Shown here: positions 2,185 through 27,676 of the stretch, one piece after another
How positions within the stretch are numbered: position 1 is the first letter of the stretch
Layout of the letters: every line of letters begins with the position of its first letter
NCBI GenBank assembly: GCA_029781045.1
Contig: JAKOXL010000024.1
Span: 23,210-87,209, forward strand
Direction: 5' to 3'
Length of the DNA: 64,000 nt
Source of the DNA: Bacillota bacterium
GTDB taxonomy: Bacteria; Bacillota; UBA994; UBA5500
Translations under genes and position numbers: made by a program
The notes under the pieces: generated by a model
The model's input: the letters and a program-made list of their open reading frames with translations, nothing else
The model's database searches: none
Told to the model about the DNA's origin: nothing

Positions 2185-2934
2185 GTGTCCCTTTTGGATC
2201 CAGTCGCCTTTACTATTGCTGGTATAGAGATACGTTGGTATGGGATTATAATCTCACTAGCCATTTTCTTGGGTTTACATCTGTCACTGCGGGAAATCCG
2301 TCGTCTAGGTGAAGACGAAGATAAGTTCATCTCTCTGTTCTTATACGTAATCCCGGCTGCTATTGTGGGCGCGCGCCTCTATTATGTGGCCTTTTCCGGA
2401 ATGCTCGACTGGTACATGCGCCATCCCTTGGAGCTTATCAACACCCGTCGAGGTGGTATGGCTATTCATGGCGCTTTGATTGGCGGCTTCTTAGTCGGCT
2501 GGCTATTCACCCGTCGACACAACATCAACTTTCGCAAGTGGGCCGATGTGGTAGCCCCCAGTGTGATTTTAGGGCAAGCCATTGGCCGCTGGGGAAACTA
2601 TTTTAACCAAGAAGCCTATGGTCGGGAAACCAATCTGCCTTGGGCCATGTATATTGATGGTGCTTACCGGCACCCTACTTTTCTGTATGAATTCTTGTGG
2701 AACCTGCTGGTCTTTGCTTGGCTTCTGCAACGTAGAAAGCGAAAGAAGTTTGAAGGGGAGCTGGTGCTGTGGTATCTCTTGCTGTATTCAGTGGGGCGCT
2801 TCTTTATCGAAGGTCTGCGCACCGACAGTTTAATGCTAGGTCCCATTAGAGTGGCTCAACTGTTGAGCTTGTCCTTAATAGCTGTCTGTTCCTATTTGCT
2901 ATGGCGAGGGAACAAGCAATCCCAATCAATATAG
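2185..2934 (+). CDS. lgt: Prolipoprotein diacylglyceryl transferase. The start may be TTG at 2194 rather than GTG at 2185
   Basis: LDPVAFTIAGIEIRWYGIIISLAIF and HPTFLYEFLWNLL are Lgt signature regions. GGGGAGGTG RBS at 2179-2187. Confidence 0.85.
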   Translation: MSLLDPVAFTIAGIEIRWYGIIISLAIFLGLHLSLREIRRLGEDEDKFISLFLYVIPAAIVGARLYYVAFSGMLDWYMRHPLELINTRRGGMAIHGALIGGFLVGWLFTRRHNINFRKWADVVAPSVILGQAIGRWGNYFNQEAYGRETNLPWAMYIDGAYRHPTFLYEFLWNLLVFAWLLQRRKRKKFEGELVLWYLLLYSVGRFFIEGLRTDSLMLGPIRVAQLLSLSLIAVCSYLLWRGNKQSQSI

Positions 2935-2974
2935 GTCATAGGGAGGCTGTGCAAGTCAAAGCTTGCGACAGCCT

Positions 2975-3424
2975 CTAAGTTATTCTGCGAGCCCTTAACC
3001 AAACAAGCAGGGGGTGCCCCAATCCCACCACCACAACGGCTTCACTGATTCCCAGGGTGATGACACATAGCCAGTAAGGAATTCCTAAAGCTGGGGCCAA
3101 GTAGATACTGACGAGGACTCCGTTGAGCACAACAGGCCAGAGATAGGCTAGCCAGCTGTCTCTTGTACGATAGGTTAGGTAGGCAGCGATCAAGGTCACC
3201 AGGCTACCGCCGAAAATATCTAAAGGCCCGAAGCCTCCCATAATATTGGCTAAAAGTACACCCACATATAAGGCGATGACCGATTCGGGGTATATGATCG
3301 GCAATACGGTCAGGGCTTCGCTGGCCCGAAACTGAATGTGGCCAAAACCCACGGGTGCGACTATGAAGGTGATAGTAACATATAGACTTGCGATTATTGC
3401 TCCTCTTATTAGCTTCCTCGCCAT
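2975..3424 (-). CDS. Small polytopic membrane protein, possibly a QueT-family or ECF S-component-like transporter
   Basis: 149 aa and highly hydrophobic (GFGHIQFRASEALTVLPIIYPESVIALYVGVLLANIMGGFGPLDIFGG). Assignment to QueT rests on recall only and no preQ1 riboswitch is recognisable in its leader. Confidence 0.4.
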   Translation of the reverse strand: MARKLIRGAIIASLYVTITFIVAPVGFGHIQFRASEALTVLPIIYPESVIALYVGVLLANIMGGFGPLDIFGGSLVTLIAAYLTYRTRDSWLAYLWPVVLNGVLVSIYLAPALGIPYWLCVITLGISEAVVVVGLGHPLLVWLRARRIT

Positions 3425-3640
3425 GCTCCCTTTCCTCCTTCTCGTTATTTCCGATGCAAAGATAGTCTAGTAGAACACTGCCTGAATAGCAACTCTTGCA
3501 CCATGGAGACAAAAATAACATATTATGCAGCATCGAGGGGAGCAAGAAGTGGTATGGAACACTATTTTCTTGCTGTTCATAAGATGGTTTGAAAGGGCTG
3601 CACGGTGGTGCAGAATGAGCAAAGGAGGGAAGAAGGAAGC

Positions 3641-4240
3641 ATGTGGAACAGCACCAAGCTATCAGGCGGTCTACGCGAGATAACGACCAAAGCGACCTGC
3701 GCCAAAGGCCAGAAGCGTTTCCGCCAGATACATAGTATCGTTACCGCCAATCCCGCAGAGCTTGTGCTGGGGAGCAGGATTACCAGCCATAATTACTCGG
3801 CCTGCCCTTTAGCCAACTCCGTTGAGATTAAAGGGTCCTACGATCTGCATATCTGGTACACATACGCAGACGGAACTCTAACTGCTGTGGAAAAGAAGAC
3901 GGTTCGCTATACCGAGCATCTCCCAGTAATCGATTTGGAAGGAGAGCGTCTGCGGAAGGATGAGACTGTAGAGATTACTGTGACGCGGGAGCCGGAAGTA
4001 GCAAACATGCACGTCCGTCGGGGCGCAGTCCAGGTCGAAGTGGATTTGGAGTTCTATGTCGAGATCGTCGGTGAGACTAAGCTTTGGGTAAGGGTCTATG
4101 AACCTCCCTTTGCTGATGATGACAAAAAGGCCAAAGCACTAGAGCTTGATGCTAGTGGCGACTATTTTGATGAAGACGATTTCGACGACGAGGAATACGA
4201 AGATGAATGGGAGGATGAAGACGAGGACTTCGTTCTGTAA
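3641..4240 (+). CDS. cotE: Spore coat morphogenetic protein CotE. True start is the ATG at 3641, not the ORF-track 3605
   Basis: REITTKATCAKGQKRFRQ...VEIKGSYDLHIWYTYADGTLTAVEKKTVRY...EFYVEIVGETKLWVRV followed by an acidic D/E-rich tail closely parallels B. subtilis CotE (EIITKAVVAKGRKF...[24 protein letters not shown]...). AAAGGAGGG RBS 11 nt upstream. Confidence 0.85.
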   Translation: MWNSTKLSGGLREITTKATCAKGQKRFRQIHSIVTANPAELVLGSRITSHNYSACPLANSVEIKGSYDLHIWYTYADGTLTAVEKKTVRYTEHLPVIDLEGERLRKDETVEITVTREPEVANMHVRRGAVQVEVDLEFYVEIVGETKLWVRVYEPPFADDDKKAKALELDASGDYFDEDDFDDEEYEDEWEDEDEDFVL

Positions 4241-4271
4241 TCCCTCCAGCTAGAATAGCGGTTAGTTAATG

Positions 4272-4302
4272 CTCCAGAGGTATCTCTGGAGTATTTTTTT
4301 TG
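4272..4302 (+). terminator. Rho-independent terminator after cotE
   Basis: CTCCAGAG-gtat-CTCTGGAG perfect 8-bp stem followed by a T9 run. Confidence 0.7.
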
Positions 4303-4325
4303 CCTGTCCACAAAAGGCACCGCAA

Positions 4326-5738
4326 ATGCTGACTCATCATATCTTGAAGCAGAACTCCACAGAAACTGGGGGTGCAACAGCGTTGGTCAGGGTCCAACTA
4401 TTTGCGTTGCAGAATCCAGGGGAGGTACATCTCCCTGCCAGTCTTAGTAAGGATTTGCCTAGGGCTACAACTGTTGGCAGTGTTTCCTTTGGTCAAAGAC
4501 AAGCAGAAGCAGTTTTCAAATCCCCCGATAATCATCGCCGTGACAATAGATTGGGGATGGGCGCCGATATAATGCAGGCTTTAGGTCTGCGCCCAGGAAG
4601 CAGGCTGCGGGCAGCATGGGATAGTACCCGCAACCGGCTACGTTTGGGGCCAGTGGTGGCTATTATGGCTTGGCGCTGCCGTTCGTTTCCATCGTTTCAC
4701 CTTTTTGGGCCCGCTACCGACATGGTTCGTACTTTCGTGCGCTTGGTACGAGCCCGTGGCGCAGTAGGTTATGCCTTCTCCCCCAAGGAAATCCATTGGG
4801 AGAGCAATAGTGTGATCGGCTATATTCCGGCTGGGCGAGGATGGCGGAAAGCTCTGATGCCTTTGCCCGACGTTGTCTATGATCGCATTCAAAGCCGGGC
4901 CATTGATGCCAGTAAGCGGGTGCAAACTGCCAAGCAACGACTGATGGCCATGGAGAGCATCCACTATTTTAACCCCTTTTTTCTTGATAAATGGGAAACA
5001 TACGAGGCCCTAGTTCAGGACCCGCAGGCTAAACACTACTTGCCGAGGACAGAGCGACTAACCTCTCTGGACCAACTTGGTCCATGGTTACGAGCATACC
5101 CCACAGTGTTCATCAAACCTGCCAGCGGCTCCTTAGGAATGGGCATCGTTAAGATTAGCCGCATGGCTCGCGGTTACCGTTATCACCGGATTCGCATGGG
5201 TGGTGGCAGCCGTGCCGGGGTCTGTAGTTCTCTACGGAAACTACAAGCTCGACTGCGCGCCATTCTGCCGCGGCGCTCTATGATTATTCAACAGGGGTTG
5301 AACCTAGCGCGTTATGGAGGTCGTCCCTACGATATCCGAGTAATGGTGCAAAAAACGCCGCGGGGTAACTGGGTGTGCACCAACATGATTGCTAGGGTGG
5401 CATCTCCCGGAAGTGCGGTTTCCAACGTGGCTGAGGGAGGCACTATGATTTCGGTACGACGGGCGATAAAAGGGTCCCTAAGGATTAACCCGCGGGTTGC
5501 AACACGACGGATAAGGCGCGGAGCCCGGATAATTGCCCGTGCGGTGGAAACCCAGTTAGGTCAGGAGTTTGGTGAGTTTGGAGTTGATATGGCTCTAGAT
5601 CGGAGAGGAAGGTTATGGTTAATCGAAGTCAATGCCAAACCCGGTCGCCAAAACGACAATCTACCAGGTATTCCTCCTTCCATGCGCCGGATCGCCCGCT
5701 ACGCGGTGGCGCGGGCCAGGTTTAGCGAAAGGGGGTGA
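4326..5738 (+). CDS. YheC/YheD-family ATP-grasp protein, long YheD-like form with an N-terminal extension
   Basis: C-terminal half reads RPYDIRVMVQKTPRGNWVCTNMIARVASPGSAVSNVAEGGT...LWLIEVNAKPGRQ, matching the YheC/D ATP-grasp core (FD[IV]R..QKNG.G.W...IT..NGG...E.N.KPG). The N-terminal ~110 aa (LPASL...LGPVVAIM) is shared with the 8373 paralog. Start moved to the ATG at 4326 because the ORF-track start lies inside the cotE terminator. Confidence 0.7.
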   Translation: MLTHHILKQNSTETGGATALVRVQLFALQNPGEVHLPASLSKDLPRATTVGSVSFGQRQAEAVFKSPDNHRRDNRLGMGADIMQALGLRPGSRLRAAWDSTRNRLRLGPVVAIMAWRCRSFPSFHLFGPATDMVRTFVRLVRARGAVGYAFSPKEIHWESNSVIGYIPAGRGWRKALMPLPDVVYDRIQSRAIDASKRVQTAKQRLMAMESIHYFNPFFLDKWETYEALVQDPQAKHYLPRTERLTSLDQLGPWLRAYPTVFIKPASGSLGMGIVKISRMARGYRYHRIRMGGGSRAGVCSSLRKLQARLRAILPRRSMIIQQGLNLARYGGRPYDIRVMVQKTPRGNWVCTNMIARVASPGSAVSNVAEGGTMISVRRAIKGSLRINPRVATRRIRRGARIIARAVETQLGQEFGEFGVDMALDRRGRLWLIEVNAKPGRQNDNLPGIPPSMRRIARYAVARARFSERG

Positions 5739-7144
5739 GTCGGTTGGCACAGGGTCTAGTCATAATGCCTAATGAGGTAGCAAGTGGCCTGCTATCTGAG
5801 TTATTGCCGGACGTAACAGTTAGCACCACCTATCAGCCTGGAAACTGGAGGTTCATTATACGGTTTGGTGAAGCAAAAGGTAGCGATGATAGTTCCTTTG
5901 TCCTCAATAGAGCAGCAGTGCTGGATACTCCCGACCTGCTCAGTGAATCCCAGGCCCATTGGCGAGCCAGTTCCTTGCGTTTCTTAGCTCCGGGGAGACG
6001 TATAACCTTCTATAAACGCTATCGGGTGCACGTGTTTGATCTGGAGCCCATCTATATGCAGAGGATAGAGATTGGTCGGCGCCGTACCATTGCGATAAAA
6101 CCCAACAGTTCCCAAGAAGCACGGAGGGTAGGAGAGCTGGCAGTGCGGGCCTTCTACACCGCGGGTCTAGACGTGGGGGCAGTAGATATTGGCATCAGCA
6201 GTAGAGGTAGACTGTATCTTATCAATATCTCAGCCTGCCCTCGCATGGGGAGGGCAATCGCCTTAGCCTACGCCAAGCATATACAGGCGTGGATAAAACG
6301 TATGGAGGTCTATTGGACCAGGAGTCTTCTATCGGGACCAAAATGCCCCCAGTATCTGATCGGCGCTGATCCAGAATTTGCACTGCGCGACGCCCGCACG
6401 GGGCGTATGATTTTTGCTTCCGACTATTTCCCTATACAGGGTCTGGTTGGTTGCGATGCGCGCCGTGTTAAACTCGGGCGCTCCGGATACCCGCTAGCTG
6501 AGATTCGCCCTACTCCTACTCAATGTCCCCTAGAACTCTATGAGGGGATCATCCGAGCCTTACGTAGAGCCAACCGTCTGATGCCGAGCCGCTATGTGCA
6601 GTGGCGAGCCGGAACTCTACCTTTTAGTCAGTTGCCAGTTGGTGGGCATATCCACTTCAGTATGTTACCCACAGGTCCCTTGCTCCGGGCCCTAGATAAT
6701 TATCTGGCCGTTATATTCCTGCTGCTCGAGAACCCAGCTGCCGCCCGCAGCCGCCGGAAAAAGTATGGTTGGCTTGGGGATTACCGTTTGAAAACCCATG
6801 GTGGCTTTGAGTATCGAGTGGTCCCCAGTTGGTTGGTAAGCCCAGTCTTTGCTCGAGGCGCCCTTTGTTTGGCTAAGGTAATAGGTTGTGACTGGCCTTA
6901 TTTACGTTTTGATTTATTCATCCGACCGGAGGCCAAAATGGCCTTCCGACAAGCGGATCAAGACTATTTTCGTGCTCAGCTACCAACCCTCTTGGCGGCC
7001 ATCCGCTCGCTACCCACTTATGAAACCTATGCCACAGAGATAGAAGCACTTCTGAGTTTTATTGAGCAGAACAAGCGCTGGAAAACATCCGATGATATTC
7101 GGCGTAGTTGGCGCCTGGTTAAAAACCGCAGGCGTCGTGCTTGA
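5735..7144 (+). CDS. Fusion protein: a truncated ATP-grasp-like N-terminal module joined to a C-terminal glutamine-synthetase-like (GCS2/amidoligase-type) domain
   Basis: N-terminal part RYRVHVFDLEP...AIKPNSS...AGLDVGAVDIGISSRGRLYLINISACP resembles the C-terminal subdomain of the neighbouring ATP-grasp proteins. The C-terminal part carries GADPEF...(~70 aa)...VGGHIHFS...GGFEYRV, reminiscent of the G-x-E-x-E ... G-x-H-x-H pattern of YbdK/GCS2-type carboxylate-amine ligases. GTGA start/stop overlap with the upstream gene. Confidence 0.55.
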   Translation: MSRLAQGLVIMPNEVASGLLSELLPDVTVSTTYQPGNWRFIIRFGEAKGSDDSSFVLNRAAVLDTPDLLSESQAHWRASSLRFLAPGRRITFYKRYRVHVFDLEPIYMQRIEIGRRRTIAIKPNSSQEARRVGELAVRAFYTAGLDVGAVDIGISSRGRLYLINISACPRMGRAIALAYAKHIQAWIKRMEVYWTRSLLSGPKCPQYLIGADPEFALRDARTGRMIFASDYFPIQGLVGCDARRVKLGRSGYPLAEIRPTPTQCPLELYEGIIRALRRANRLMPSRYVQWRAGTLPFSQLPVGGHIHFSMLPTGPLLRALDNYLAVIFLLLENPAAARSRRKKYGWLGDYRLKTHGGFEYRVVPSWLVSPVFARGALCLAKVIGCDWPYLRFDLFIRPEAKMAFRQADQDYFRAQLPTLLAAIRSLPTYETYATEIEALLSFIEQNKRWKTSDDIRRSWRLVKNRRRRA

Positions 7145-7261
7145 GCACAGGCTATTTATGAAAGCCATATATTGTACTACAGCAGGCTACTAGCCTAGGC
7201 CAACGAGAGGCTCTGCAATATTTGTTGACAATCCCTTGAAAGAGAAAGAGATGAATAAGGG

Positions 7262-8365
7262 GTGGATAATGTGGCATCAAGCCGCGTATTGGTGGGAGTA
7301 ATGACTGCCCGCAGGCCGGGCGCGCGCCCTTTTGTGGAGGGTAGGTTCCTACGTGAACTGTCGTATGCGGCACGTCAAGTCGGAATGCGGTTGATTGTGT
7401 TTAGTCCTCTAGATATTAACTGGGGACAACGTCGAGTCCTTGGTTTCACCTATCGTAGGGGGGTTGGTTGGCAAGGCCGTTACTATCCGGTGCCTCGGAT
7501 AGTATATGATCGCATATTCCCTAGCCGAGGAATGTGGGGACTGTACTTTGGGCAGGTAGCCCGAATGCGTCGTGCTTTCCGCGTTACCATGATGGGGCGT
7601 GGCTTGCACGGCAAGTGGCAAATGTATAGGATTGTACGTCGTTACGAAGACCTACGCCCCCACCTGCCCGAGACCAGATTGGGGAGTGTTCGAAACCTAG
7701 CAATAATGCTGAACCGCTTCGACCTGGTCTATGTTAAACCCGTCTTTGGCAGTGGAGGCAAGGGAATAGCCCGCATTCGACGCTGGCGTGGTGGCTATAT
7801 AGTGGACCGTGTTGGCCGTCCACGTCTCCACGCCAGCTCTCTGGCGTCTGTGGTTGCGGCTCTTGGTGGGATGAGTCGTCGTTATGTGGTTCAGCAAGGC
7901 CTAAGGCTCAACTACTTACGAGGAAGTACTTTTGATATCAGGGCCATAGTTCAGAAGAACGGGGAAGGTCAGTGGCAGGTTTCCGGCAAGGCAGTACGGA
8001 TGAGCCGCCCGGGACGGATTACATCCAATTTGCACACCGGGGGGCGAGCCTATTCTGTGCCTGCCCTTCTACAACGCTGCTTTCCCGACAGGGCAGAGGA
8101 ACTGGAGCAAGAACTGGATAAACTTGCCATTCGTGTAGCGGAAGTCATGAATAGGCATGCTGGTCCTCTTTGCGATCTCGGCCTAGACCTAGGCATAGAT
8201 GCAAATGGCAAGATATGGATAATAGAAGTCAACTCAAAGCCTGGTCGAAAGGTCTTTCTGCAAATGGGTGACCGGGAGGGGCGTCAACGGGTGGTACGTA
8301 CATTGATGGAGTATGCCAAGTACCTGAGTGAGCAACGCAATGAGCAACGGAGCCGGGGGAGGTGA
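7262..8365 (+). CDS. YheC/YheD-family ATP-grasp protein, short YheC-like form. Start may be the GTG at 7271
   Basis: TFDIRAIVQKNGEGQWQVSGKAVRMSRPGRITSNLHTGGRA...IWIIEVNSKPGRK. 367 aa, no N-terminal extension. Confidence 0.75.
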   Translation: MDNVASSRVLVGVMTARRPGARPFVEGRFLRELSYAARQVGMRLIVFSPLDINWGQRRVLGFTYRRGVGWQGRYYPVPRIVYDRIFPSRGMWGLYFGQVARMRRAFRVTMMGRGLHGKWQMYRIVRRYEDLRPHLPETRLGSVRNLAIMLNRFDLVYVKPVFGSGGKGIARIRRWRGGYIVDRVGRPRLHASSLASVVAALGGMSRRYVVQQGLRLNYLRGSTFDIRAIVQKNGEGQWQVSGKAVRMSRPGRITSNLHTGGRAYSVPALLQRCFPDRAEELEQELDKLAIRVAEVMNRHAGPLCDLGLDLGIDANGKIWIIEVNSKPGRKVFLQMGDREGRQRVVRTLMEYAKYLSEQRNEQRSRGR

Positions 8366-8372
8366 ACAGTTG

Positions 8373-9704
8373 ATGGGCGAGACAAATCTGGCTAGGGTTG
8401 TCAGTCGTAGAGCATCATCTACCTGTACCTTACCCCGCAGCCTCCTAGAAAGAACCGGATGGCGGACAGGGGAGATCGTCACTTTTTCCTTCGGCAGTGC
8501 TAGTCGTCGCATGCGGGTACAGGGTGGTGAGGAGGATGTTTGGCAGCTGCCAGCGTCCCTTTTGCGGTCCTTGGGGATGGTGCCTCGGCGGTGGTCTTAC
8601 CACCTGGATACAGAAAGAAGATGGGTAAGGTTCGGTCCCCTCATCGGTATTTTGACCACATGGCAGACTACTCCCTATTTCCGCTCAGTAATGCGGGCTG
8701 CCGCCAGTCGTGGGATGATGGCGGTGGTTTTCCGTCCCCAAAACCTGCATCCGGGAGGACGTCAACTGGAGGGATGGGGCCTAGTAAACGGGATAGTCAG
8801 GCCGGTAAGAGTGCCTTGGCCCGATGTTGTATACAACCGCATTCCTAATCGAGGAGACGAGCTTCTACGGAGCACCAGAGTATGTAAACGCAGGTTAGAA
8901 CAGGCGAGAGTACCCGTATTCAACCGACGGTTCTTTCATAAATGGCGCATTCATCGTCTTTTAAGGCGAGATGAAACAGCCTTACGCTATTTACCGGAGA
9001 CGCAGCCGATGCTTAACTTGCAACAAGTTAGGCATTTCCTTAACCGCTATCCCGCGGCTTACCTGAAACCCAATGGCGGTAGTAAAGGGCACGGCATTGT
9101 GCGGGTTTTGCGGCTCCGAGGCCAGGGCTACCAGATTTCTTTCCGGAAGGGAAACCGCAATTATCAACACACTGTGGGAAGTTGGCCGCAGGCGGCGTCA
9201 ATAATCAGACGGGCTATGGCGCCTCGCAGTTATTTGATACAAGAAGGAATCGCCTTAGCCAATTATCGAGGTCGTCCCTTCGATGTAAGAGTAACGTTAT
9301 ACAAGAACGGTCAAGGGGAATGGGTGCCTTGTGGTCCAGCTGCCAAGATCGCTGGTTATGGAAGTATAACGACCCACGTGGCTAACGGAGGTCGTGTGAT
9401 TCCGCTTTCTCGCGCTCTGCGCTATGCTTTTGGCAATCAGGCGGAGGAGATTAGGACGCGAATTGAAGCAGCAGCAGTGGATCTAGCCCTAGCTGTAGAA
9501 CGCGTGACATCTCTCCAACTGGGTGAGATTGGCCTTGATATCGGGTTAACCGCGCAGGGACGTGTGGCCATGTTTGAAGCCAATAGTAAGCCCGGGCGGG
9601 CAGTCTTCGCAGCGGCTTGGAATCGGCAGGATCGTTGGAAGTCGTTATTACATCTCTGCGACTATGCGGCCAGTTTGGCTGGTTTTGATAGGGGTGTGAG
9701 TTGA
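8373..9704 (+). CDS. YheC/YheD-family ATP-grasp protein, long YheD-like form. Start re-set to the ATG at 8373 after GGGGGAGGTGA
   Basis: RPFDVRVTLYKNGQGEWVPCGPAAKIAGYGSITTHVANGGRV...AMFEANSKPGR. N-terminal LPRSLLERTGW...LPASLLRSLG...GPLIGIL matches the extension on the 4326 protein. Confidence 0.7.
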   Translation: MGETNLARVVSRRASSTCTLPRSLLERTGWRTGEIVTFSFGSASRRMRVQGGEEDVWQLPASLLRSLGMVPRRWSYHLDTERRWVRFGPLIGILTTWQTTPYFRSVMRAAASRGMMAVVFRPQNLHPGGRQLEGWGLVNGIVRPVRVPWPDVVYNRIPNRGDELLRSTRVCKRRLEQARVPVFNRRFFHKWRIHRLLRRDETALRYLPETQPMLNLQQVRHFLNRYPAAYLKPNGGSKGHGIVRVLRLRGQGYQISFRKGNRNYQHTVGSWPQAASIIRRAMAPRSYLIQEGIALANYRGRPFDVRVTLYKNGQGEWVPCGPAAKIAGYGSITTHVANGGRVIPLSRALRYAFGNQAEEIRTRIEAAAVDLALAVERVTSLQLGEIGLDIGLTAQGRVAMFEANSKPGRAVFAAAWNRQDRWKSLLHLCDYAASLAGFDRGVS

Positions 9705-10777
9705 TGCAGAGACCGATTCTCGGAATTCTAACGGCAGGAAAGGGATCAGTTCCGGGGAACCGCGAAATGTTCCGCTTTGTGCAGCAGGCCTGTCGGGAGG
9801 CAGGTCTGACTGCCTACGTTTTTACACCGGCCCAAGTGAACTGGTCACAGCGGATTGTATATGGCTATCGGTATGTCGGTGGTCGCTGGCGACCTGGCCG
9901 ATTTCCGCTTCCGCAGGTAGTCTACAACCGGGTGCCAAATCGGCAATTGGAAGAGAGTGCTGAAGTAAGACAACTGAAACGGCGGCTGCAGGCTAGGGGC
10001 ATTCCCTATTACAATGCCACATACTTGAACAAATACGATCTTTATCGACTGTTGGTAACTGAATCTGCTATTAAGCCTCACTTGCCGTGGACGAAGTTGG
10101 TGCGGAGTCGAGCCGACATTTACGATGCTTTGCAGCGATTTGGCCGTATCTACCTGAAGCCGAGGCACGCTTTTGCCGGCAAAGGTATCATGATGGTCAG
10201 CCTCAAGGGCAATGCTTGGGCCTTGCGTTACCGCCAAAATAATAGCAATAGGGTGATACAAGGCAGCAAACTATCCGAGCTCTGGCCGCGATTGGATCAG
10301 CGCATGGGGCGCCAAAGTTATATCGTGCAGCAAGCTATTTCCCTAGCCCAGTATCGCGGCCGCAACTTTGATGTTAGGTTACTGGCGCAGAAAAATGGTC
10401 AAGGCAGGTGGCAGGTCACCGGCATGGGGATGAGGGTGGCTAGTAAAGGTGGGATCACCACCCACGTGCCCAACGGAGGATTTATCGCCCCCGCCGAAGA
10501 GGTACTGGCCGATGTATTTGGTGCCGAAGCGCCGCAAGTACGCCAGAAGGTGGAGCAGCTGGCACTACAGATTGCACCCATCATTGAAAGGGGCTATAGA
10601 GGCCTTTTTGGCGAGATGTCAATGGATATTGGCCTAGATACAACCGGTCATCCATGGTTCTTTGAGGCCAATGCTAAACCCATGCGCTTTGACGAACAGG
10701 GCATTAGGCGCAAGGGTTTACAAACACTGACAGCTTATGTGCAGTACCTTGCTAAAAGGGCTGGCACCGGGGGGTAA
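9701..10777 (+). CDS. YheC/YheD-family ATP-grasp protein, short YheC-like form
   Basis: RNFDVRLLAQKNGQGRWQVTGMGMRVASKGGITTHVPNGGFI...WFFEANAKPMR. ATGA start/stop overlap with the upstream gene. Confidence 0.75.
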   Translation: MMQRPILGILTAGKGSVPGNREMFRFVQQACREAGLTAYVFTPAQVNWSQRIVYGYRYVGGRWRPGRFPLPQVVYNRVPNRQLEESAEVRQLKRRLQARGIPYYNATYLNKYDLYRLLVTESAIKPHLPWTKLVRSRADIYDALQRFGRIYLKPRHAFAGKGIMMVSLKGNAWALRYRQNNSNRVIQGSKLSELWPRLDQRMGRQSYIVQQAISLAQYRGRNFDVRLLAQKNGQGRWQVTGMGMRVASKGGITTHVPNGGFIAPAEEVLADVFGAEAPQVRQKVEQLALQIAPIIERGYRGLFGEMSMDIGLDTTGHPWFFEANAKPMRFDEQGIRRKGLQTLTAYVQYLAKRAGTGG

Positions 10778-10781
10778 ACCG

Positions 10782-11234
10782 ATGATAACTTACCGCCAAA
10801 TAACGGAAAAGGACTTCTCTGAACACAGGGCCAACATATTACGCCTCGTCAGGCTTCATGCCGATAATCACATTACTCGTAAGGCTCTCAACCACCTTCG
10901 CCGTTTCCGTTCAGAAAAGCTTTCTAGAGAAGGCAATGTTATCTGGACCGCTTGGGATGGTCAACTTCTTGTGGGCGTGATCTTCTGCGAACGTTTTGGT
11001 AACCGCACATCCCTGGCGGTAGTGCGGAGAAGCCACCGCTCTCAGGGCATAGCTAAAGAGCTATTGCGCTTAGCAGTAAACACTATGGGTAGATTCTATG
11101 CGGAAGTGGCCGCCGATAATCCCGCCAGTCTAAAGGTTTTGTTCGGTATGGGCATGGTCGCCTATGATGTTTTCCCTCGTAGAGGCAAATGGATACTCCG
11201 AGTACGCAATGGTTTCAAAGTTGACAAAGAATAG
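10782..11234 (+). CDS. Small GNAT-family N-acetyltransferase-like protein. Start at the ATG at 10782
   Basis: ~150 aa with an acetyl-CoA-binding-like segment VVRRSHRSQGIAKELLRLAV (R-x-x-G-x-A pattern). Begins 5 nt after the preceding ATP-grasp gene. Confidence 0.5.
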   Translation: MITYRQITEKDFSEHRANILRLVRLHADNHITRKALNHLRRFRSEKLSREGNVIWTAWDGQLLVGVIFCERFGNRTSLAVVRRSHRSQGIAKELLRLAVNTMGRFYAEVAADNPASLKVLFGMGMVAYDVFPRRGKWILRVRNGFKVDKE

Positions 11235-11237
11235 GCA

Positions 11238-11278
11238 CCAGCCAGGTTCCCGTAGTACAGGGGCCTGGCTTTGTTGTT
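11238..11278 (+). terminator. Probable rho-independent terminator after the GNAT gene
   Basis: AGCCAGG...CCTGGCT stem with an internal CCC/GGG pair, followed by TTGTTGTT. Confidence 0.4.
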
Positions 11279-11350
11279 ACAAGCATATTCCTGCCTGTTT
11301 ATCAATAGGTATGAAACGATAGAGAGTCTTGGGCGGAAGGAGTAATCCAC

Positions 11351-12601
11351 ATGAGCACTTGGCGTGGTAGGGACATTGCGAACGCTTTTGGCATCAGCGA
11401 TGAGGGCATGGTGCTGAACGGGGTCTTTTGCCTAAACACTCCCTTCGGGTTAGCTACTCCGTCAGTGTATCGGGGAGATCTGGACTTCTTGCAGTGGCTA
11501 GGAACTCAAGTTCCCCAAATTAACACGCGGCTGGGGCGGTTAAGCCTGAGTCGGTTACTAACAGCACCCTCGGGTCGGTTTTATGCGGAAGTGGGTGGAG
11601 AAACGGTCTTATTATCCGTATTAGAAACGGGGCCCAGTTGCGATCCTCGCAACGCCTTTGAGTTGTTCACGGTGGCTGCTGGCCTAGCCCATGTGCATCA
11701 ACAGGAGGTGGGGGTAGCGGGGGCAGCACCCGACTGGCTGAAGTATTATCAAATGCAAAGGGACAAGTTGGCACAGCTAACGCCTACCAATTTGCCGAAA
11801 CGTGCTTTGATTGCGTGGGCCAACTTGGAAGAAACGTGGCGCTTATGTGCAGAAGAGGCCATTAACCTGCTGAGCCAACTGAGAGACATGGCTCGGGAGC
11901 TTTGCCTGGTTTTAGGCTTGCAGTCCTTTTCTGATTTTGTCTATCTGGCTGATAGGCACCAAGTTCATTATAACCTGGTGGTCAGGTGCCATCTGGACTC
12001 ACCTGCAGTAGATCTAGCTCGCTTGGTGGCGTCTGCGGGGAGTGAGGGCAGAATCGCGCATAACATGCTTTTATCTTACCAGCGGGTAAGAAGGCTGACT
12101 AAAGGCGAATGCCAAGAGCTCTTTGCCCATCTGTGGTTCCCACACGAGGTTGATTTGGCCATCTTTTCTGATCCTACGGTTACTCCGTTACGCTTGCAAC
12201 GGGCTTGCCATCTATTGCAGGAGAAAATAGGCATGATCTCAGAGTTGGAAGATATTTTGCTGCCTACGGCCGAGGAGCCCAGTGGGCAGAGGGAAATAAG
12301 GGAGGTATTAACTGTGAACGAAAAGAAAGTGGAACCGGCACAGATTGATGCTGTGGAACTCCAATTGGAGCCAGTTCTCGATGAACCTCTGGCCGCGGCG
12401 GAAACGGCAGAGGAAGCCATGCCCGCCGTCCCAGCTGAGCAAGAGGCAAAGCGGGAAGAAGTGCAGATTAACATGATTGCGGCTACGACTAGGCGGGCCA
12501 GTGTGTGGGGACCTTTCCCAGCGCCTTTGAAAAAGGTAGAAACCAAAATTGAATCCAAAACTGAAGACCCACAGGAAGGAGAGAAAACGAGTCAGGAGTA
12601 A
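11351..12601 (+). CDS. CotS-family (bacterial spore kinase / pseudokinase-like) spore coat protein with an E/P/A-rich C-terminal tail
   Basis: FSDFVYLADRHQVHYNLVVRCHLDSPAVDLARLV and AHLWFPHEVDLAIF parallel B. subtilis CotS FCFQDFTLARL...HSITYDLPSRDLRILL and WIDLAFPHLFCAI. The last ~100 aa are low-complexity acidic and proline-rich. Confidence 0.5.
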   Translation: MSTWRGRDIANAFGISDEGMVLNGVFCLNTPFGLATPSVYRGDLDFLQWLGTQVPQINTRLGRLSLSRLLTAPSGRFYAEVGGETVLLSVLETGPSCDPRNAFELFTVAAGLAHVHQQEVGVAGAAPDWLKYYQMQRDKLAQLTPTNLPKRALIAWANLEETWRLCAEEAINLLSQLRDMARELCLVLGLQSFSDFVYLADRHQVHYNLVVRCHLDSPAVDLARLVASAGSEGRIAHNMLLSYQRVRRLTKGECQELFAHLWFPHEVDLAIFSDPTVTPLRLQRACHLLQEKIGMISELEDILLPTAEEPSGQREIREVLTVNEKKVEPAQIDAVELQLEPVLDEPLAAAETAEEAMPAVPAEQEAKREEVQINMIAATTRRASVWGPFPAPLKKVETKIESKTEDPQEGEKTSQE

Positions 12602-12682
12602 ACCCACTGCTTTGTAGTGATAAGAATATCGGTGGGGCATACTAACTCTGTCATTATAGCTGCACTTCTAGCAGAAAGGGTG

Positions 12683-12865
12683 ATGGTCGTGGCTCGAGGG
12701 CGAGGCATAATGTCTGACGAACTCAAGTACCGACTAGCCGACGAACTGGGTTTCGGGGATATGGTACGTCAACATGGTTGGGGTGCCATCACAACCCGAG
12801 ATGCTGGCAATCTGGTAAAGCTGGCTATTGCCAAGGCGCAACAGATGATGCAAGAGCAGCTATAA
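12683..12865 (+). CDS. Divergent alpha/beta-type small acid-soluble spore protein (SASP)-like protein; start uncertain between 12683 and 12710
   Basis: ELKYRLADELGFGDMVRQHGWGAITTRDAGNLVKLAIAKAQQ resembles SASP QMKYEIAQEFGV...GGEITKRLVQMAEQQ but matches the two PROSITE SASP signatures only partly. A CATACTA sigma-G-like -10 lies upstream. Confidence 0.45.
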   Translation: MVVARGRGIMSDELKYRLADELGFGDMVRQHGWGAITTRDAGNLVKLAIAKAQQMMQEQL

Positions 12866-12871: not shown

Positions 12872-12913
12872 GGGGGGCTATCCGCTTTAGCGGATAGCCC
12901 CCGCTTTTGTTTC
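12872..12913 (+). terminator. Rho-independent terminator
   Basis: GGGGGCTATCCGC-ttta-GCGGATAGCCCCC perfect 13-bp stem, then GCTTTTGTTT. Confidence 0.8.
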
Positions 12914-16573: not shown

Positions 16574-18661
16574 ATGCAAACTCGGCGCCGAATAGGATTT
16601 GCTATGATGGTGTTCATGCTGACCATTGGTGCGCTTGTTTGTCGGTTAGCTTGGATACAGCTGATAAAAGGTCCAGAACTCACTCGCCGAGCTGTAGCTC
16701 AATGGATGCGTGAAATCCCTGTGGAGCCAAAAAGAGGAATCATCTATGACAGTAAAGGCAATGAGTTGGCGATAAGCGCTAGTGCTGATACTGTAGTAGC
16801 GTTGCCTGCTCAAATTCCTAAGGAAAAGGCTCCCGAGATAGCAGCCGAGTTGGCGCGTATATTAAACAAGAATGCGGAAGATGTTCTAAAGACAATAACC
16901 CAGAAAAAGGCCGCAGTCTACGTAGCACGGAAGGTAGACCCGGAAGTGGCCCGTGAGATCAGGGAGCTGGCACTACCCGGTATTACATTTACAGAGGAAA
17001 GTCGTCGTTATTATCCATATGGCAATTTGGCATCCCAGGTCCTAGGTTTTGCTGGGGTAGATAGTCAAGGGCTCTACGGGCTCGAACTTCAATATGATGA
17101 GTATTTGCGGGGCAAGCGGGGCTATCTGCAGTATCCCACCGATAATCAGGGGCAGGAAATCCCTAATGCTACACCCACCTACGTTCCACCCCAACCTGGA
17201 TATAACATTCATCTAACCATAGACCAGGTCATACAACATATAGTAGAGCGAGAACTGGACAACTTAATGGTAATGCATAATGCAGAGAGCGTGACGGCTA
17301 TTGTCATGGACCCTAACACAGGGAAGATCCTGGCGATGGCTAATAGACCTGATTTTGATCCCAATAATTATATGGCAGCCGTGGAGGAATACGGTTCCCA
17401 ATCGGTCTGGCAAAACCAAGCCATATCAGGTGGTTTTGAGCCAGGAAGTACCTTCAAAGTTGTTACTGCCACCGCCGGACTAGAAAAGGGAGTTGTGCGA
17501 GAGGATAGTGTCTACTACGACAAAGGTTATGAAGTGGTGGCTGGTCATCGCATTCATTGCTGGAGAAGGACGGGGCATGGTCAAGAGACTTTTTTACAGG
17601 TGATGCAGAATTCCTGTAACCCGGGGTTTATCGATGTGGGAATGAAGCTGGGTGCCGACACCATGCTGGAATACCTACAAAAGTTCGGCTTCGGCCAGAA
17701 AACCGGGATTGACTTGCCGGGTGAAGCCGTAGGGGTTATGTTTAATAAAGTGGGGCCGGTCGAGCTGGCCACATTGTCCTTCGGCCAAGGGCCGTCGGTA
17801 ACCCCCATTCAACAGGCAGCAGCAATGGCTGCCATTGCCAATGGCGGGAAACTCATGCAGCCTTACGTGGTTGAACGCATTACCGATCAGGACGGTAACA
17901 TAATTGAGCAACGGGAACCAAGAGTAGTACAACAGGTCACCAGCCCAGAGATTGCACAACGGGTGGCCCTCATGCTGGAAAGTGTTGTGGCTGAGGGCGG
18001 TGGGCGTAATGCCTATATCCCAGGATTCCGTGTTGCCGGCAAGACCGGTACGGCACAAGTGCCTAAGCCGGGTGGCGGATACTATCCGGATAAATACATT
18101 GCCTCTTTCAGTGGTTTTGCGCCAGTCGATGATCCCAAGATTGTAGTTTTTATCGCGGTGCATAATCCAAGAGGCAAGTATGGCTATTACGGCTCTCAGG
18201 TGGCCGGTCCCGCATTTAAGAGTATGGCAGAGGATATCTTATACTACCTAGATGTGCGTCCCCAGAGTGAGGCCACCAGTGGAAAGGTGCAGGCCATTGA
18301 AGTGCCCGACTTGGTAGGCATGACATCTACGGAGGCATTGGAAAGGCTGCGCGATACGGGATTGAATATTAGGATCGATGGCCAGGGAGCCAAGATTCTG
18401 GACCAGACCCCGAGGGCTGGTGTTAAAGTTCCGCCCGGCTCGACGGTCATAGTTCATATGGGAGAAAAACCTCCCAGCGCAGGCGAACCGGTACAAGTGC
18501 CTAATGTGATCGGTCTTTCTCTGCGTGATGCCAGTGTGAAGCTGTCAGCAGTAGGGTTGCAGGTGCAGGCGGTAGGTTCGGGGATAGCCATTTCCCAATC
18601 ACCAGCTCCAGGCACCGTAATCCCGGCTGGCAGTATGGTAAGAGTGGAGTTCAAACCTTAG
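16574..18661 (+). CDS. Class B penicillin-binding protein (FtsI/SpoVD family transpeptidase) with two C-terminal PASTA domains
   Basis: SGGFEPGSTFK (SxxK), SCN, KTGTAQ motifs. Two PASTA-like repeats (VPDLVGMTSTEAL..., VPNVIGLSLRDAS...). Confidence 0.85.
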   Translation: MQTRRRIGFAMMVFMLTIGALVCRLAWIQLIKGPELTRRAVAQWMREIPVEPKRGIIYDSKGNELAISASADTVVALPAQIPKEKAPEIAAELARILNKNAEDVLKTITQKKAAVYVARKVDPEVAREIRELALPGITFTEESRRYYPYGNLASQVLGFAGVDSQGLYGLELQYDEYLRGKRGYLQYPTDNQGQEIPNATPTYVPPQPGYNIHLTIDQVIQHIVERELDNLMVMHNAESVTAIVMDPNTGKILAMANRPDFDPNNYMAAVEEYGSQSVWQNQAISGGFEPGSTFKVVTATAGLEKGVVREDSVYYDKGYEVVAGHRIHCWRRTGHGQETFLQVMQNSCNPGFIDVGMKLGADTMLEYLQKFGFGQKTGIDLPGEAVGVMFNKVGPVELATLSFGQGPSVTPIQQAAAMAAIANGGKLMQPYVVERITDQDGNIIEQREPRVVQQVTSPEIAQRVALMLESVVAEGGGRNAYIPGFRVAGKTGTAQVPKPGGGYYPDKYIASFSGFAPVDDPKIVVFIAVHNPRGKYGYYGSQVAGPAFKSMAEDILYYLDVRPQSEATSGKVQAIEVPDLVGMTSTEALERLRDTGLNIRIDGQGAKILDQTPRAGVKVPPGSTVIVHMGEKPPSAGEPVQVPNVIGLSLRDASVKLSAVGLQVQAVGSGIAISQSPAPGTVIPAGSMVRVEFKP

Positions 18662-18707
18662 GCTAATGGAGTTGGCGCAAGAATAGAACAGAAGGGGGCA
18701 GCCGAAG

Positions 18708-20207
18708 ATGCGTTTAGCAAATTTGGTTTCTGCCCTTGCGCCGTTACGCACGTCAGGTTCACTGGAACGGGAAATATCGGGCATCCAATACGACTCCCGT
18801 TTGGTTAGGCCTGGCGACCTTTTCATCGCCATACCCGGGTTTGTTTATGACGGTCATGACTATCTGGAAGAGGCTGCTAATAGAGGGGCAGCAGCCGCCG
18901 TTATCGCAAAGGAAATAGCTGTTCCGCCCCAATTAACGAGCATCCAAGTAACGGATTCGCGAAGGGCATTGGCTTTAGCAGCAGCCATGTTTTTTGGACA
19001 TCCGTCGCGAAAACTGCGCGTTATAGGTGTGACAGGTACGAATGGAAAGACAACAACTACCTTCCTCAGTGAGAGCTTGTTGAGAGCAGCAGGAATGCGG
19101 ACAGGACTTATAGGTACCGTCTGCACACGTATTGGAGACAGGGAACTGGACTCGGTGCGCACGACCCCGGAGTCCCTCGATCTGCAACAATTGCTGGCAC
19201 AGATGGTTGAGGCCCAAGTCTCCCATGCTATTCTCGAAGTTTCTTCCCATGCCTTGGTTCTGGAGCGTTTGACGGGTTGCGAGTTCGACATAGCAGTCTT
19301 TACCAACCTGACTCAGGATCATTTGGATTTTCATGGGACTAGGGAAAACTACTTAGCAGCAAAGGCGCGGTTGTTTACCAGCTTAGATATGGGGGAGAAA
19401 AGGGATAAGTGGGCCATCATTAATGTAGATGATCCCGCTTGTCTCTACTTGCAAAGCGTAAGTAAGGCTTCTGTCTTTACCTACGGGATCAAGCGTTCAG
19501 CTGATCTGCAAGCGGTGGAAATACTGGTTACCAGTGAGGGTACCGAATTCGGTGTCTTAAGGGACGGCAAGTATTCGGGGCGTACCCGTGTGCCCACTCC
19601 AGGTTACTTCAGTGTATACAACGGTTTAGCAGCTATTGCGGTGGCACTAGTGGAAGGCATCCCCTGGCCGCTGATAAGGGAAAAACTGCCAGAGAGTCGC
19701 CCAGTGCCTGGACGCTTTCAACCGGTGCGAGCCGGGCAACCTTTTGATGTTATAGTTGACTATGCCCATACCCCGGACGGTCTGGAGAACATACTCAATA
19801 CAGCACGCAGCTTTACTAAGGGTCGTATCATCATTGTTTTTGGTTGTGGCGGCGATCGAGATCGAAGCAAGCGGCCAGAAATGGGTCGAATTGCTAGCCA
19901 GTTGGCTGATATAGTAATTATCACCAGCGACAACCCGCGCTCCGAGTTGCCGGAGAAGATTGCTCGTGATATTATGCAGGGCGTGACAGGACCGGCTGCT
20001 GTGCATGTTGAGCTGGATCGAGCTCAAGCTATCCGCAAAGCCATTGGTCTGGCAAGGCCGGGTGACACGGTGTTGATCGCGGGTAAGGGGCATGAGACAT
20101 ATCAGATTTTCGCCGATAGAGTTATCCATTTTGATGATCGGGAAGTGGCCGAACAGGCAGTGGAGGTAAGCAAACATGAAAGTTTGGAGTTTAGGCGAGA
20201 TAGTTAA
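18708..20207 (+). CDS. murE: UDP-N-acetylmuramoyl-L-alanyl-D-glutamate--2,6-diaminopimelate ligase
   Basis: GVTGTNGKTTT P-loop and the DNPR motif (TSDNPRSE) that indicates meso-DAP specificity. Confidence 0.9.
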   Translation: MRLANLVSALAPLRTSGSLEREISGIQYDSRLVRPGDLFIAIPGFVYDGHDYLEEAANRGAAAAVIAKEIAVPPQLTSIQVTDSRRALALAAAMFFGHPSRKLRVIGVTGTNGKTTTTFLSESLLRAAGMRTGLIGTVCTRIGDRELDSVRTTPESLDLQQLLAQMVEAQVSHAILEVSSHALVLERLTGCEFDIAVFTNLTQDHLDFHGTRENYLAAKARLFTSLDMGEKRDKWAIINVDDPACLYLQSVSKASVFTYGIKRSADLQAVEILVTSEGTEFGVLRDGKYSGRTRVPTPGYFSVYNGLAAIAVALVEGIPWPLIREKLPESRPVPGRFQPVRAGQPFDVIVDYAHTPDGLENILNTARSFTKGRIIIVFGCGGDRDRSKRPEMGRIASQLADIVIITSDNPRSELPEKIARDIMQGVTGPAAVHVELDRAQAIRKAIGLARPGDTVLIAGKGHETYQIFADRVIHFDDREVAEQAVEVSKHESLEFRRDS

Positions 20208-21585: not shown

Positions 21586-22555
21586 AGTTCGCTTATTATT
21601 GGCCACAGTTTCTGCTCTGTTGTTAGGTTTGCTCATAGGGCCGATAATCCTGCCTGCCCTGAGGCGTCTAAAAATACGCCAAACCGTGCGGGAGGACGGC
21701 CCGGCCACCCATTTAGCAAAAAGCGGAATCCCTACCATGGGCGGCCTGATTTTTCTGGCGACGACGGTGGCAGTGGCAATTGTCTTTGTGCCGGCAGATC
21801 ATCGCGCTTTGGCCGCCACCTGGTTTTGGGTGGTATTGGGTCTGGGCCTCATAGGTTTTCTGGATGACTATATCAAGGTGGTGCGCAGGCAATCCTTAGG
21901 GCTAAGGGCCCGGGAAAAACTGCTTGGCCAGTTAATTGTTGCTGTTGTCTTCTTTGGCATGCTTAAGTATCTGAATCACTCACTGGACTTGATTGTCCCT
22001 GTTTGGGGATGGCGTCTGCCCCTAGATTGGTTGTATTTGCCCTTTGTGATTATCGTTATTATGGCGGCTGGCAACGGGGCCAACCTAACCGATGGTGTAG
22101 ATGGGTTACTAGCCAGCTGCGCTATTGTCTCTAGCCTTGCCTATGTTTTCATTGGCATGGTCACAGGGCAAGAAGTAATCGCCCTACTGCTGGCCATTCT
22201 CGTGGGTGCTCTTCTGGCCTATCTGCGTTTCAACTGGCATCCTGCCGCTGTTTTTATGGGCGACGTGGGTTCATTGGCCATCGGGGGAGCGCTGGCGGGT
22301 GCAGCCATTCTGACCAAGACTGAACTGCTTCTGATACCGATAGGTGTTGTGTATGTGATTGAGACGCTTTCTTTGATCATTCAAGTAGTCTATTTTCGTA
22401 GAACCGGTGGGAAACGCTTTTTTCGCATGGCACCGATTCATCACCACTTTGAGCTGGGCGGCTGGTCGGAGGTAAAAGTCGTAGCCGTTTGGTGTTTGAT
22501 GAGTATCATTGGGGGGATTGTCGGGCTTTTGCTATTACCCAGCATGGGATTGTGA
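21575..22555 (+). CDS. mraY: Phospho-N-acetylmuramoyl-pentapeptide transferase
   Basis: NGANLTDGVDGL, HHHFE motifs; polytopic membrane protein. Confidence 0.9.
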   Translation: MRIEVRLLLATVSALLLGLLIGPIILPALRRLKIRQTVREDGPATHLAKSGIPTMGGLIFLATTVAVAIVFVPADHRALAATWFWVVLGLGLIGFLDDYIKVVRRQSLGLRAREKLLGQLIVAVVFFGMLKYLNHSLDLIVPVWGWRLPLDWLYLPFVIIVIMAAGNGANLTDGVDGLLASCAIVSSLAYVFIGMVTGQEVIALLLAILVGALLAYLRFNWHPAAVFMGDVGSLAIGGALAGAAILTKTELLLIPIGVVYVIETLSLIIQVVYFRRTGGKRFFRMAPIHHHFELGGWSEVKVVAVWCLMSIIGGIVGLLLLPSMGL

Positions 22556-22587
22556 GGATGTAATAGGCTGGCAGGGAGGGTGTCAAT

Positions 22588-23709: not shown

Positions 23710-23719
23710 CGGTGATAGA

Positions 23720-24841: not shown

Positions 24842-24917
24842 CACAACCTGGCCTTAGGCCATACTATGAAGATGTAGGGTCGACGCTAGGGCAACATGAA
24901 GAGAGTGGGGTGACCAC

Positions 24918-26183: not shown

Positions 26184-26192
26184 GTCGCCATA

Positions 26193-27674: not shown

Positions 27675-27676
27675 AC

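Follow-up and report, generated by a model that had tools for sequence, protein, structure and literature searches.

Why should a spore-forming bacterium keep five amide-bond-forming ligases beside cotE, the gene for a spore-coat morphogenetic protein? For some two decades, YheC and YheD have figured among the conserved proteins of the spore coat with no function assigned, and the coat of spore formers beyond Bacillus and Clostridioides is largely unexplored. We analyzed a stretch of 64,000 nucleotides (nt) from an uncultured Bacillota lineage (contig JAKOXL010000024.1, positions 23,210 to 87,209; hereafter the window), in which nine co-directional plus-strand genes span 3.6–12.9 kb. A first-pass annotation of this DNA had described a spore-coat locus made up of cotE with its terminator, five consecutive ligase genes, a small GNAT acyltransferase gene, a gene for a CotS-family pseudokinase and a small acid-soluble spore protein (SASP) gene. 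All nine genes were found at the positions first given, with the ligase genes directly after cotE and its terminator. We consider it reasonably probable, with considerable room for doubt, that the locus encodes a mother-cell, coat-associated, multi-step amide-ligation system and represents a sporulation-specific module that is widely conserved.

Four ATP-grasp ligases and an amidoligase fusion

Five ATP-dependent carboxylate-amine ligases from two superfamilies are encoded at the locus, one of them a fusion protein, as had been proposed. A YheC/D-type ATP-grasp core had been assigned to all five; it is present in four, which match PF14398 with scores of 235, 249, 244 and 246 bits (gathering score 26.8; E 1e-69 to 5e-74). 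The fifth gave no PF14398 match and belongs to PF14395 (COOH-NH2_lig), with a score of 294.5 bits (gathering score 25) over profile positions 1–254 of 254. The two long proteins, two short proteins and one fusion of the first-pass annotation were all recovered, but their order is long (yheD1), fusion amidoligase, short (yheC1), long (yheD2), short (yheC2) rather than two long/short pairs plus a fusion.

The four YheC/D paralogs share 31–32% identity. K245, G252/G254, D317-x-R319, D402 and E415-x-N417 are invariant in all four, as is a KP..R motif, and the ATP-binding Lys, the Gly loop, DxR, the Mg-binding Asp and ExN are invariant in 25 homologs from five lineages. Among ATP-grasp enzymes, the assemblage that forms peptide-like bonds is recognized by the Arg of an ExR-type motif (PMC4431377). 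In a neighbor-joining tree of 108 homologs, each window paralog was placed in its own clade with its Tumebacillus and Kyrpidia orthologs. Because each paralog falls in a separate clade, the duplications are old and plain redundancy is disfavored; paralogs that are old, separately conserved and catalytically intact bear out the earlier view that the array is more than a set of redundant copies.

Weak secondary matches of the four proteins were all to glutamate-adding ligases: RimK, MptN (E 2.4e-9), CofF and tubulin-tyrosine ligase (TTL). YheC1 scored 23.1 bits against Pfam RimK (PF08443), just over the cut-off of 21 and beneath its far stronger PF14398 match, and 25.1 bits against TIGR00768 (RimK alpha-L-glutamate ligase), for which the cut-off is 143.4; a comparison of YheC1 with the PDB gave no sequence match. 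By these weak hidden Markov model (HMM) matches, RimK, TTL-like proteins, CofF and MptN are the nearest characterized ATP-grasp families; they have DxR and ExN in common with the window ligases and attach Glu to a terminal carboxylate, either on a cofactor or at the end of a protein tail. The window ligases are nevertheless not members of those families, their NCBIfam scores being far under the cut-offs (rimK_fam, 25 bits vs 143). As every nearest characterized family is a glutamate ligase, the units added by the window enzymes are probably glutamate-like amino acids.

The long proteins differ from the short ones by an N-terminal module of ~100 amino acids (aa), present in the window only in YheD1 and YheD2; in the tree sample, 73 of 108 homologs are of the long kind (at least 430 aa). 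At 4383–4700 and 8373–8680, as in many other loci, the module carries a duplicated "LP..L...LgL..G..v.v..G" pattern and ends in "lRlGPliGI." No Pfam family matched it. To see whether it might be an AbrB-like swapped-hairpin domain, we compared it by hhalign with AbrB, SpoVT and Abh sequences; the probability reached only 21%, over 25 columns, and no AbrB homologs were among the sequences collected for comparison.

For the fusion protein, an AlphaFold model was built from 51 sequences (predicted local distance difference test score [pLDDT] 94.6; predicted TM-score [pTM] 0.93). Foldseek matched the model to YbdK/GCS2 (1r8g and 1tt4) and to many glutamine synthetases (GS), with E values of 3e-6 to 5e-5 (1r8g: E 3.5e-6, TM-score on target 0.50). 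Residues D212, E214, E256, H305, H307, R340, R341, E359 and R361 of the C-terminal domain are invariant in the 51 sequences and are predicted to be catalytic. The domain thus resembles YbdK/GCS2 and glutamine synthetase in fold and in its invariant Glu, His and Arg residues, but sequence identity is only ~13%, and the amidoligase belongs to a separate Pfam family in which it is fused to a degenerate ATP-grasp-like domain. It also belongs, with a full-length match, to the same family as the phage phiEco32-like COOH-NH2 ligase, the namesake of PF14395; in contrast to that case, the window context is not phage-like, and the Bacillota proteins have the extra N-terminal domain and the linkage to cotE.

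The N-terminal domain (aa 1–200) of the model has an ATP-grasp fold, with Foldseek matches to PsnB (7dro), Ddl (5dmx; TM-score on target 0.54) and pyruvate carboxylase (5ks8). Weak sequence matches to ATP-grasp families cover aa 89–174, and hhalign placed aa 142–171 against the two final strands of the ATP-grasp domain in YheC/D proteins (E 7e-4, probability 27%). The catalytic Lys and the ExN motif are not retained: ExN aligns to a hydrophobic LINIS stretch, and N58 is the sole invariant residue in aa 1–200 across the 51 sequences. Judged from the model and from residue conservation, the fusion is an active-looking GS-fold amidoligase joined to a dead ATP-grasp remnant.

The module and its tie to cotE

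To place the cluster among other genomes, one genome per species was scanned with the amidoligase alignment, and the window proteins were mapped onto 79 loci (individual loci carry numbers with the prefix L below). Amidoligase loci were confirmed in at least 492 species genomes, and three layouts recurred among the 79 mapped loci. In the first, cotE is accompanied by two to four YheC/D genes and the amidoligase gene (the source lineage, Thermincola, Symbiobacterium, Tumebacillus, Kyrpidia and several metagenome-assembled genomes [MAGs]). The second, in Syntrophomonadaceae, has a YheC/D-amidoligase pair, a second YheC/D pair ~5 kb upstream and no cotE. In the third, cotE and the amidoligase gene are adjacent with no YheC/D gene nearby (Thermoactinomycetaceae and Ammoniphilus). 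Among the 33 loci with full flanks, cotE lay within 10 kb of the amidoligase gene in 21, and exactly cotE, four YheC/D genes and the amidoligase gene were found in 11, the commonest layout. A five-ligase array is thus what this widespread module usually looks like, and no peculiarity of the window, contrary to the first-pass annotation, which had presented the array as unusual: the neighborhood comparison finds cotE, YheC/D and amidoligase genes together across Bacillota.

Around the Syntrophomonadaceae and Tumebacillus loci, the genes outside the conserved core were only housekeeping genes (such as HtrA, PFK, YchF, CobW and Psd). GNAT and CotS-like partners, noted in the first-pass annotation, do occur in the window locus, but as accessories of the source lineage: the GNAT was seen there and in L021 (E 1e-5), and the CotS-like gene, like the adjacency of the SASP gene to the cluster, in the source lineage only.

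Compared with B. subtilis YheC/YheD, the window ligases belong to the same family (PF14398, E about 1e-70) and likewise come in long and short forms. Pfam reportedly describes PF14398 as a family that takes part in modifying spore-wall and capsular proteins. The window differs in having four old paralogs instead of two proteins, and in the linkage of these genes to cotE and a PF14395 amidoligase, plus the GNAT and the pseudokinase in the source lineage.

CotE itself is the leading candidate for an acceptor or partner of the ligases, though an unproven one, because cotE stays beside the amidoligase gene even where YheC/D genes are absent. CotE tails were acidic in all loci compared, and no shared terminal motif marking a ligase acceptor site was found among the CotE C termini.

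Several loci show further features of these genes. Two amidoligase paralogs, each with its own YheC/D set, occur within a single locus in some Clostridia and Limnochordia MAGs (L009, 7044–11353; L062, 6803–11116). In Thermincola and relatives (L049, L054 and L073, at ~2700–4070), tandem cotE paralogs precede the ligases, one with a short tail and one with a long acidic tail. Clear CotE homologs were also seen in many lineages outside Bacilli, among them Thermincola, Symbiobacterium and several unclassified MAGs (L005, L007, L008, L016, L026, L035, L049, L051, L054, L068, L073 and others). In an early survey, clostridia yielded no CotE (PMC3533761); a later survey of sporulation genes placed it in "only a few clostridia" (bioRxiv 10.1101/2022.02.25.481979).

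Promoter-like boxes, accessory genes and flanks

Intergenic regions of the locus were aligned with those of relatives of 42–86% amidoligase identity, which revealed conserved promoter-like boxes (Table 1). The AC-N17-CATAnnnT boxes are probably of the mother-cell sigma-K/sigma-E type, by comparison with the B. subtilis consensus. Those before yheD1 and yheC1 retain their CACC...CATAT core in L002, L003 and L011 (56–58% amidoligase identity); in L005 (42%), CATAT alone is retained in the yheD1 box. By the same comparison, the box before the CotS-like gene may be sigma-E-like. The box before the SASP gene is putatively of the forespore sigma-G/F type, and no convincing −35 element was found in that promoter. 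Sigma-70-like sites occur in the window at chance level, with no excess. In B. subtilis, yheC and yheD are genes of the sigma-E regulon and are stimulated by SpoIIID (PMC517825), and YheD, which is SpoIVA-dependent and interacts strongly with itself, surrounds the forespore first as rings and later as a shell (PMC7911427, PMC7725329). The conserved mother-cell-type boxes and the cotE linkage agree with the sporulation and coat setting that had been proposed for the cluster, and the organism has a sporulation sigma cascade, as the window also encodes SpoVD (16574–18661), FtsA, FtsZ, SpoIIGA (30628–31536), SigE (31549–32298), SigG (32405–33196) and SpoIIR (33168–33797), which together with the dcw cluster span 16574–33797.

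Likely transcription units are cotE, yheD1-amidoligase, yheC1-yheD2-yheC2-GNAT, CotS-like and SASP. Starts were refined by promoter and ribosome-binding site (RBS) conservation to TTG 4383 for yheD1, GTG 7271 for yheC1, ATG 8373 for yheD2 and ~12689 for the SASP gene. For yheD1, 4326 and 4269 are alternatives, and 4383 is preferred because an RBS and a start codon are conserved there, downstream of the promoter. The yheD2 start lies behind GGAGGTG and agrees with 443-aa gene calls in relatives; cotE has the RBS AAGGAGG ahead of ATG 3641 and a 199-aa gene call on contigs with the identical amidoligase protein. Within the units, genes are joined by 1-nt overlaps or gaps of 4–7 nt. The tight coupling noted in the first-pass annotation thus stands, with details revised: yheD1 and the amidoligase gene may overlap in a GTGA at 5735, but a 5-nt gap (TTG 5744 behind GGGGGTG) is more likely, the yheD2/yheC2 overlap is a single base in TGATG (9702–9706), and 4 nt separate the yheC2 stop from the GNAT ATG at 10782.

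The small GNAT passed two Pfam cut-offs (Acetyltransf_10, 30.0 bits vs 23.6; Acetyltransf_1, 28.0 bits vs 20.7) and carries R-S-Q-G-I-A, which fits the R-x-x-G-x-A acyl-CoA motif, so this assignment held. The profile checks proposed earlier accordingly returned ATPgrasp_YheCD in four proteins and Acetyltransf in the GNAT, but no direct APH/CotS match above cut-off.

The CotS-like protein scored 17 bits (E 0.0022) against TIGR02906, which has a cut-off of 172.7; there was no Pfam APH match, and searches of the PDB and Pfam with the protein and its profile gave nothing. Its link to CotS came only from the fold search, in which its kinase-like fold was nearest to bacterial spore kinases, and from a profile search of 1.84 billion representative proteins, through which homology could be traced. 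With the family profile, proteins were reached that themselves score above the TIGR02906 cut-off (339 and 174 bits), and hhalign of the family to one TIGR02906-passing protein gave 94.9% probability. In the window protein there is no conserved N-lobe Lys, a gap stands where the catalytic-loop Asn should be, and the place of DFD is taken by an invariant N208-L-V; with these active kinase motifs missing, it looks like a pseudokinase. The CotS-family pseudokinase of the first-pass annotation is thereby upheld by fold and profile, and not by a direct family HMM. It differs from the CotS/CotI (YtaA) spore kinases (TIGR02906; PDB: 2q83) in the absence of the N-lobe Lys, the Asn of HxDxxxHN and DFD, and in an added acidic tail with a VWGPFP motif. 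Homologs are few, with 15 close ones among 5.8 billion proteins and 17 representative clusters among the 1.84 billion.

Within that otherwise variable tail, a motif [VI]W[GK]PFP[RA]P[LI] (window 12500–12560, aa ~385–395) is also present in L002, L003, L004, L005, L011, L080 and L084–L086, and among the sequences compared it is unique to this ortholog group. It may be a docking motif.

The SASP, which we take to resemble B. subtilis SspF, is 80–92% identical across relatives whose ligases are ~57% identical, and its KYRLADELGF and TTRDAGNLVK blocks are invariant in seven orthologs.

Upstream of the locus lie lgt and queT, and downstream fumA/fumB followed by the dcw cluster. Eight metagenomic contigs encode an identical amidoligase, and the closest genome in the species collection (L004) has an amidoligase of 76% identity. 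In L004 (5576–8330), the fumB-fumA-SASP-CotS-like block is inverted relative to the ligase genes, so the accessory genes are not rigidly fixed in the operon. The hairpin after the GNAT gene is a possible weak terminator, judged from its stem and T-rich run; the consensus terminator scan made no call there.

Elsewhere in the window, a block around ATAGTCTAGTAGAAC in the queT 5′ leader (3425–3480, minus strand) is kept in the queT-cotE interval of 5/5 relatives. queT genes often carry a preQ1 riboswitch, but an Rfam search of the interval between queT and cotE gave no such element, even with E values up to 1 allowed. At gathering threshold, Rfam gave a single match in the window, a T-box leader at 47379–47595 (RF00230, 94.9 bits); a search of the window for tRNA genes gave none. 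A defense-system interpretation was rejected on zero PADLOC matches in the window.

Table 1. Coordinates of genes, promoter-like boxes and terminators at the locus (window positions)
Feature	Position	Strand	Evidence and remarks
cotE box 1, CACC-N16-CATATTAT	3499..3526	+	Kept in 4/5 close relatives; pattern match 3499–3523
cotE box 2, AC-N17-CATAAGAT	3559..3585	+	Kept in 5/5 aligned relatives
cotE, 199 aa, acidic C-terminal tail	3641..4240	+	PF10628 119.3 bits (cut-off 25), profile positions 2–167 of 177
Intrinsic terminator after cotE	4268..4303	+	12-bp stem and T8 run, called at 4268–4295; hairpin kept in relatives
yheD1-amidoligase box, CACCG-N15-CATATCTT	4318..4345	+	Kept in 8/9 loci, including 56–58%-identity relatives
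yheD1, long YheC/D-type ATP-grasp ligase	4383..5738	+	PF14398 E 1.3e-69; N-terminal ~100-aa module
Amidoligase fusion	5744..7144	+	PF14395 COOH-NH2_lig E 7e-88, aa 209–461; alternative start GTG 5735
yheC1-yheD2-yheC2-GNAT box, CAC-N17-CATATATT	7146..7173	+	Kept in 7/9 loci, including L002, L003, L011
yheC1, short YheC/D-type ATP-grasp ligase	7271..8365	+	PF14398 E 5e-74; open reading frame (ORF) from 7262
yheD2, long YheC/D-type ATP-grasp ligase	8373..9704	+	PF14398 E 2.3e-72; ORF from 8328
yheC2, short YheC/D-type ATP-grasp ligase	9704..10777	+	PF14398 E 4.9e-73; alternative start 9701
Small GNAT acyltransferase, 150 aa	10782..11234	+	Two Pfam GNAT models passed
Hairpin and T-rich run after GNAT	11240..11278	+	AGCCAGG/CCTGGCT stem, read from sequence; similar hairpin in L080
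Box before CotS-like gene, GCATATT-N14-AATAGGTAT	11283..11312	+	GCATA and (C/A)ATAG blocks kept in 5 relatives
Divergent CotS-family pseudokinase	11351..12601	+	Disordered E/P/A-rich tail, conserved VWGPFP motif
−10-like box CATACTA before SASP gene	12638..12644	+	Kept in 4/5 relatives; CATAATA in L086
SASP, alpha/beta type, SspF-like	12689..12865	+	ORF from 12617; PF00269 17.6 bits, cut-off 22
Terminator closing the locus	12873..12902	+	Strong, intrinsic; 13-bp stem, 10 GC pairs, then T-rich tail

What the ligases may build

In the multi-step amide-ligation system that we favor, each ligase would activate a carboxylate as an acyl-phosphate with ATP and join it to an amine. The four ATP-grasp ligases and the GS-fold amidoligase would each form one kind of amide bond, so that successive bonds would be built stepwise on a coat-associated acceptor. 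Coat proteins as the target of tagging or cross-linking, as envisaged in the first-pass annotation, are a conjecture. In the source lineage, the GNAT would cap or acylate a free amine and the pseudokinase would act as a coat-anchored adaptor or scaffold; the dead ATP-grasp-like N-terminal domain of the amidoligase would probably be a docking or scaffold domain.

A more specific form of this idea has the five ligases writing a peptide "tail code" on CotE itself, at its acidic C terminus, or on a CotE client, with paralog-specific residues or steps, a GNAT cap, and the dead domain and the pseudokinase as anchors. Glutamate-rich or mixed amino-acid chains would be added and extended, much as RimK lengthens ribosomal protein S6 and TTLL enzymes modify tubulin. 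We regard this form as quite unlikely; if true, it would mean that an ATP-dependent, non-ribosomal modification of a protein tail controls spore coat assembly.

There is precedent for such gene sets. Comparative genomics has described operons that link ATP-grasp, COOH-NH2 ligase and GNAT genes, for which a series of peptide ligations, perhaps ended by a GNAT cap, is proposed (PMC4431377, citing Iyer et al. 2009). The window cluster has the same character, with several amide-ligase superfamilies (at least two), a GNAT for which capping is proposed, and co-directional, translationally coupled genes to which the logic of successive ligation can be applied; relative to those operons, the window case differs by its specific tie to sporulation and cotE. 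The first-pass annotation knew of no such array that had been characterized; the kind of operon, at least, had already been described.

Several observations weigh against the multi-step ligation system. No substrate or product of the ligases was identified in the analysis, no precursor-peptide ORF was seen in the cluster, and the searchable literature yielded no demonstrated reaction for any PF14398 or PF14395 member; nor did it yield a characterized function for a spore amidoligase. The tree that separates the paralogs is a neighbor-joining tree without support values. The promoter assignments were made by similarity to B. subtilis consensus sequences, and CACC-N14-17-CATAT is not enriched in the window (5 matches vs 1.9 expected, with 9 of 100 shuffles reaching 5); as the pattern count alone is not significant, the promoter argument rests on conservation across relatives. 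To our knowledge, B. subtilis lacks a PF14395 gene although it has CotE and YheC/D; CotE function in general therefore does not require the module. A bacterial two-hybrid study detected no contact of YheD with CotE or other morphogenetic proteins (PMC7911427), and the function of YheD has been stated to be unknown (PMC7911427, PMC7725329). YheC and YheD have also been listed among coat enzymes that are "not necessarily active" (bioRxiv 10.1101/2022.02.25.481979).

The strongest alternative is that the ligases modify no protein and instead make, during sporulation, a free peptide, a poly-amino-acid or a peptide-derived small molecule, for example, a storage or protective compound or a polymer of the coat matrix. 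The best-known products of linked ligase operons are secondary metabolites, cyanophycin, teichuronopeptide and cofactor tails (PMC4431377), and the cofactor glutamyl ligases MptN and CofF are among the nearest characterized relatives of the window enzymes; the missing precursor-peptide ORF would be expected here as well. Against this, the cluster has no linked transporter, tailoring or amino-acid-supply genes, the non-core genes of other lineages are unrelated housekeeping genes, and the steady partner, cotE, encodes a structural protein. The extra N-terminal module of most paralogs looks like a binding domain and not like a small-molecule site, and YheD of B. subtilis sits on the coat (PMC7911427). 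A free product is rather unlikely on this balance.

Less probable again, and in our view very unlikely, is that the proteins have a mainly structural role, as enzymes co-opted to build the coat, with a copy number that mirrors its layers and forms no pathway. The strong self-interaction of YheD, thought to polymerize around the spore (PMC7911427), would fit such a role, as would the listing of the two proteins as possibly inactive and the presence of two clearly dead domains, the amidoligase N-terminal domain and the pseudokinase. However, in the GS-fold domain and in all four ATP-grasp domains, every catalytic residue is invariant across several Bacillota lineages despite a paralog identity of ~30%, which would not be expected without selection on catalysis and disfavors a purely structural role. 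Equally improbable is that no amino acids are added and that the enzymes either form ATP-dependent isopeptide cross-links between coat side chains, as in graspetides, or modify cortex peptidoglycan stems: ATP-grasp enzymes such as PsnB, which is among the structural matches of the fusion, do form side-chain amide links, the coat is known to be cross-linked (PMC6490927) and the dcw/spoVD cluster lies just downstream in the source lineage, but the sequence neighbors of the ligases are alpha-L-glutamate-adding ligases and not graspetide or Ddl families, and the dcw proximity is limited to the source lineage, with no mur or peptidoglycan genes linked elsewhere.

Stepwise amide ligation on a coat-associated acceptor remains the explanation that we prefer. 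Its immediate consequence is that the YheC/D ligases belong to a larger conserved module, which includes a second kind of amidoligase and is tied to cotE in many lineages. From their conserved residues, the enzymes of the module look catalytically competent and non-redundant. The CotE tail, the four paralogs and the fusion protein are concrete candidates for ATP-dependent amide chemistry in coat assembly, and the module has cultured carriers in Tumebacillus, Kyrpidia, Thermincola and Thermoactinomycetaceae. The locus reveals no new kind of system; it offers an entry point to the function of the YheC/D family.

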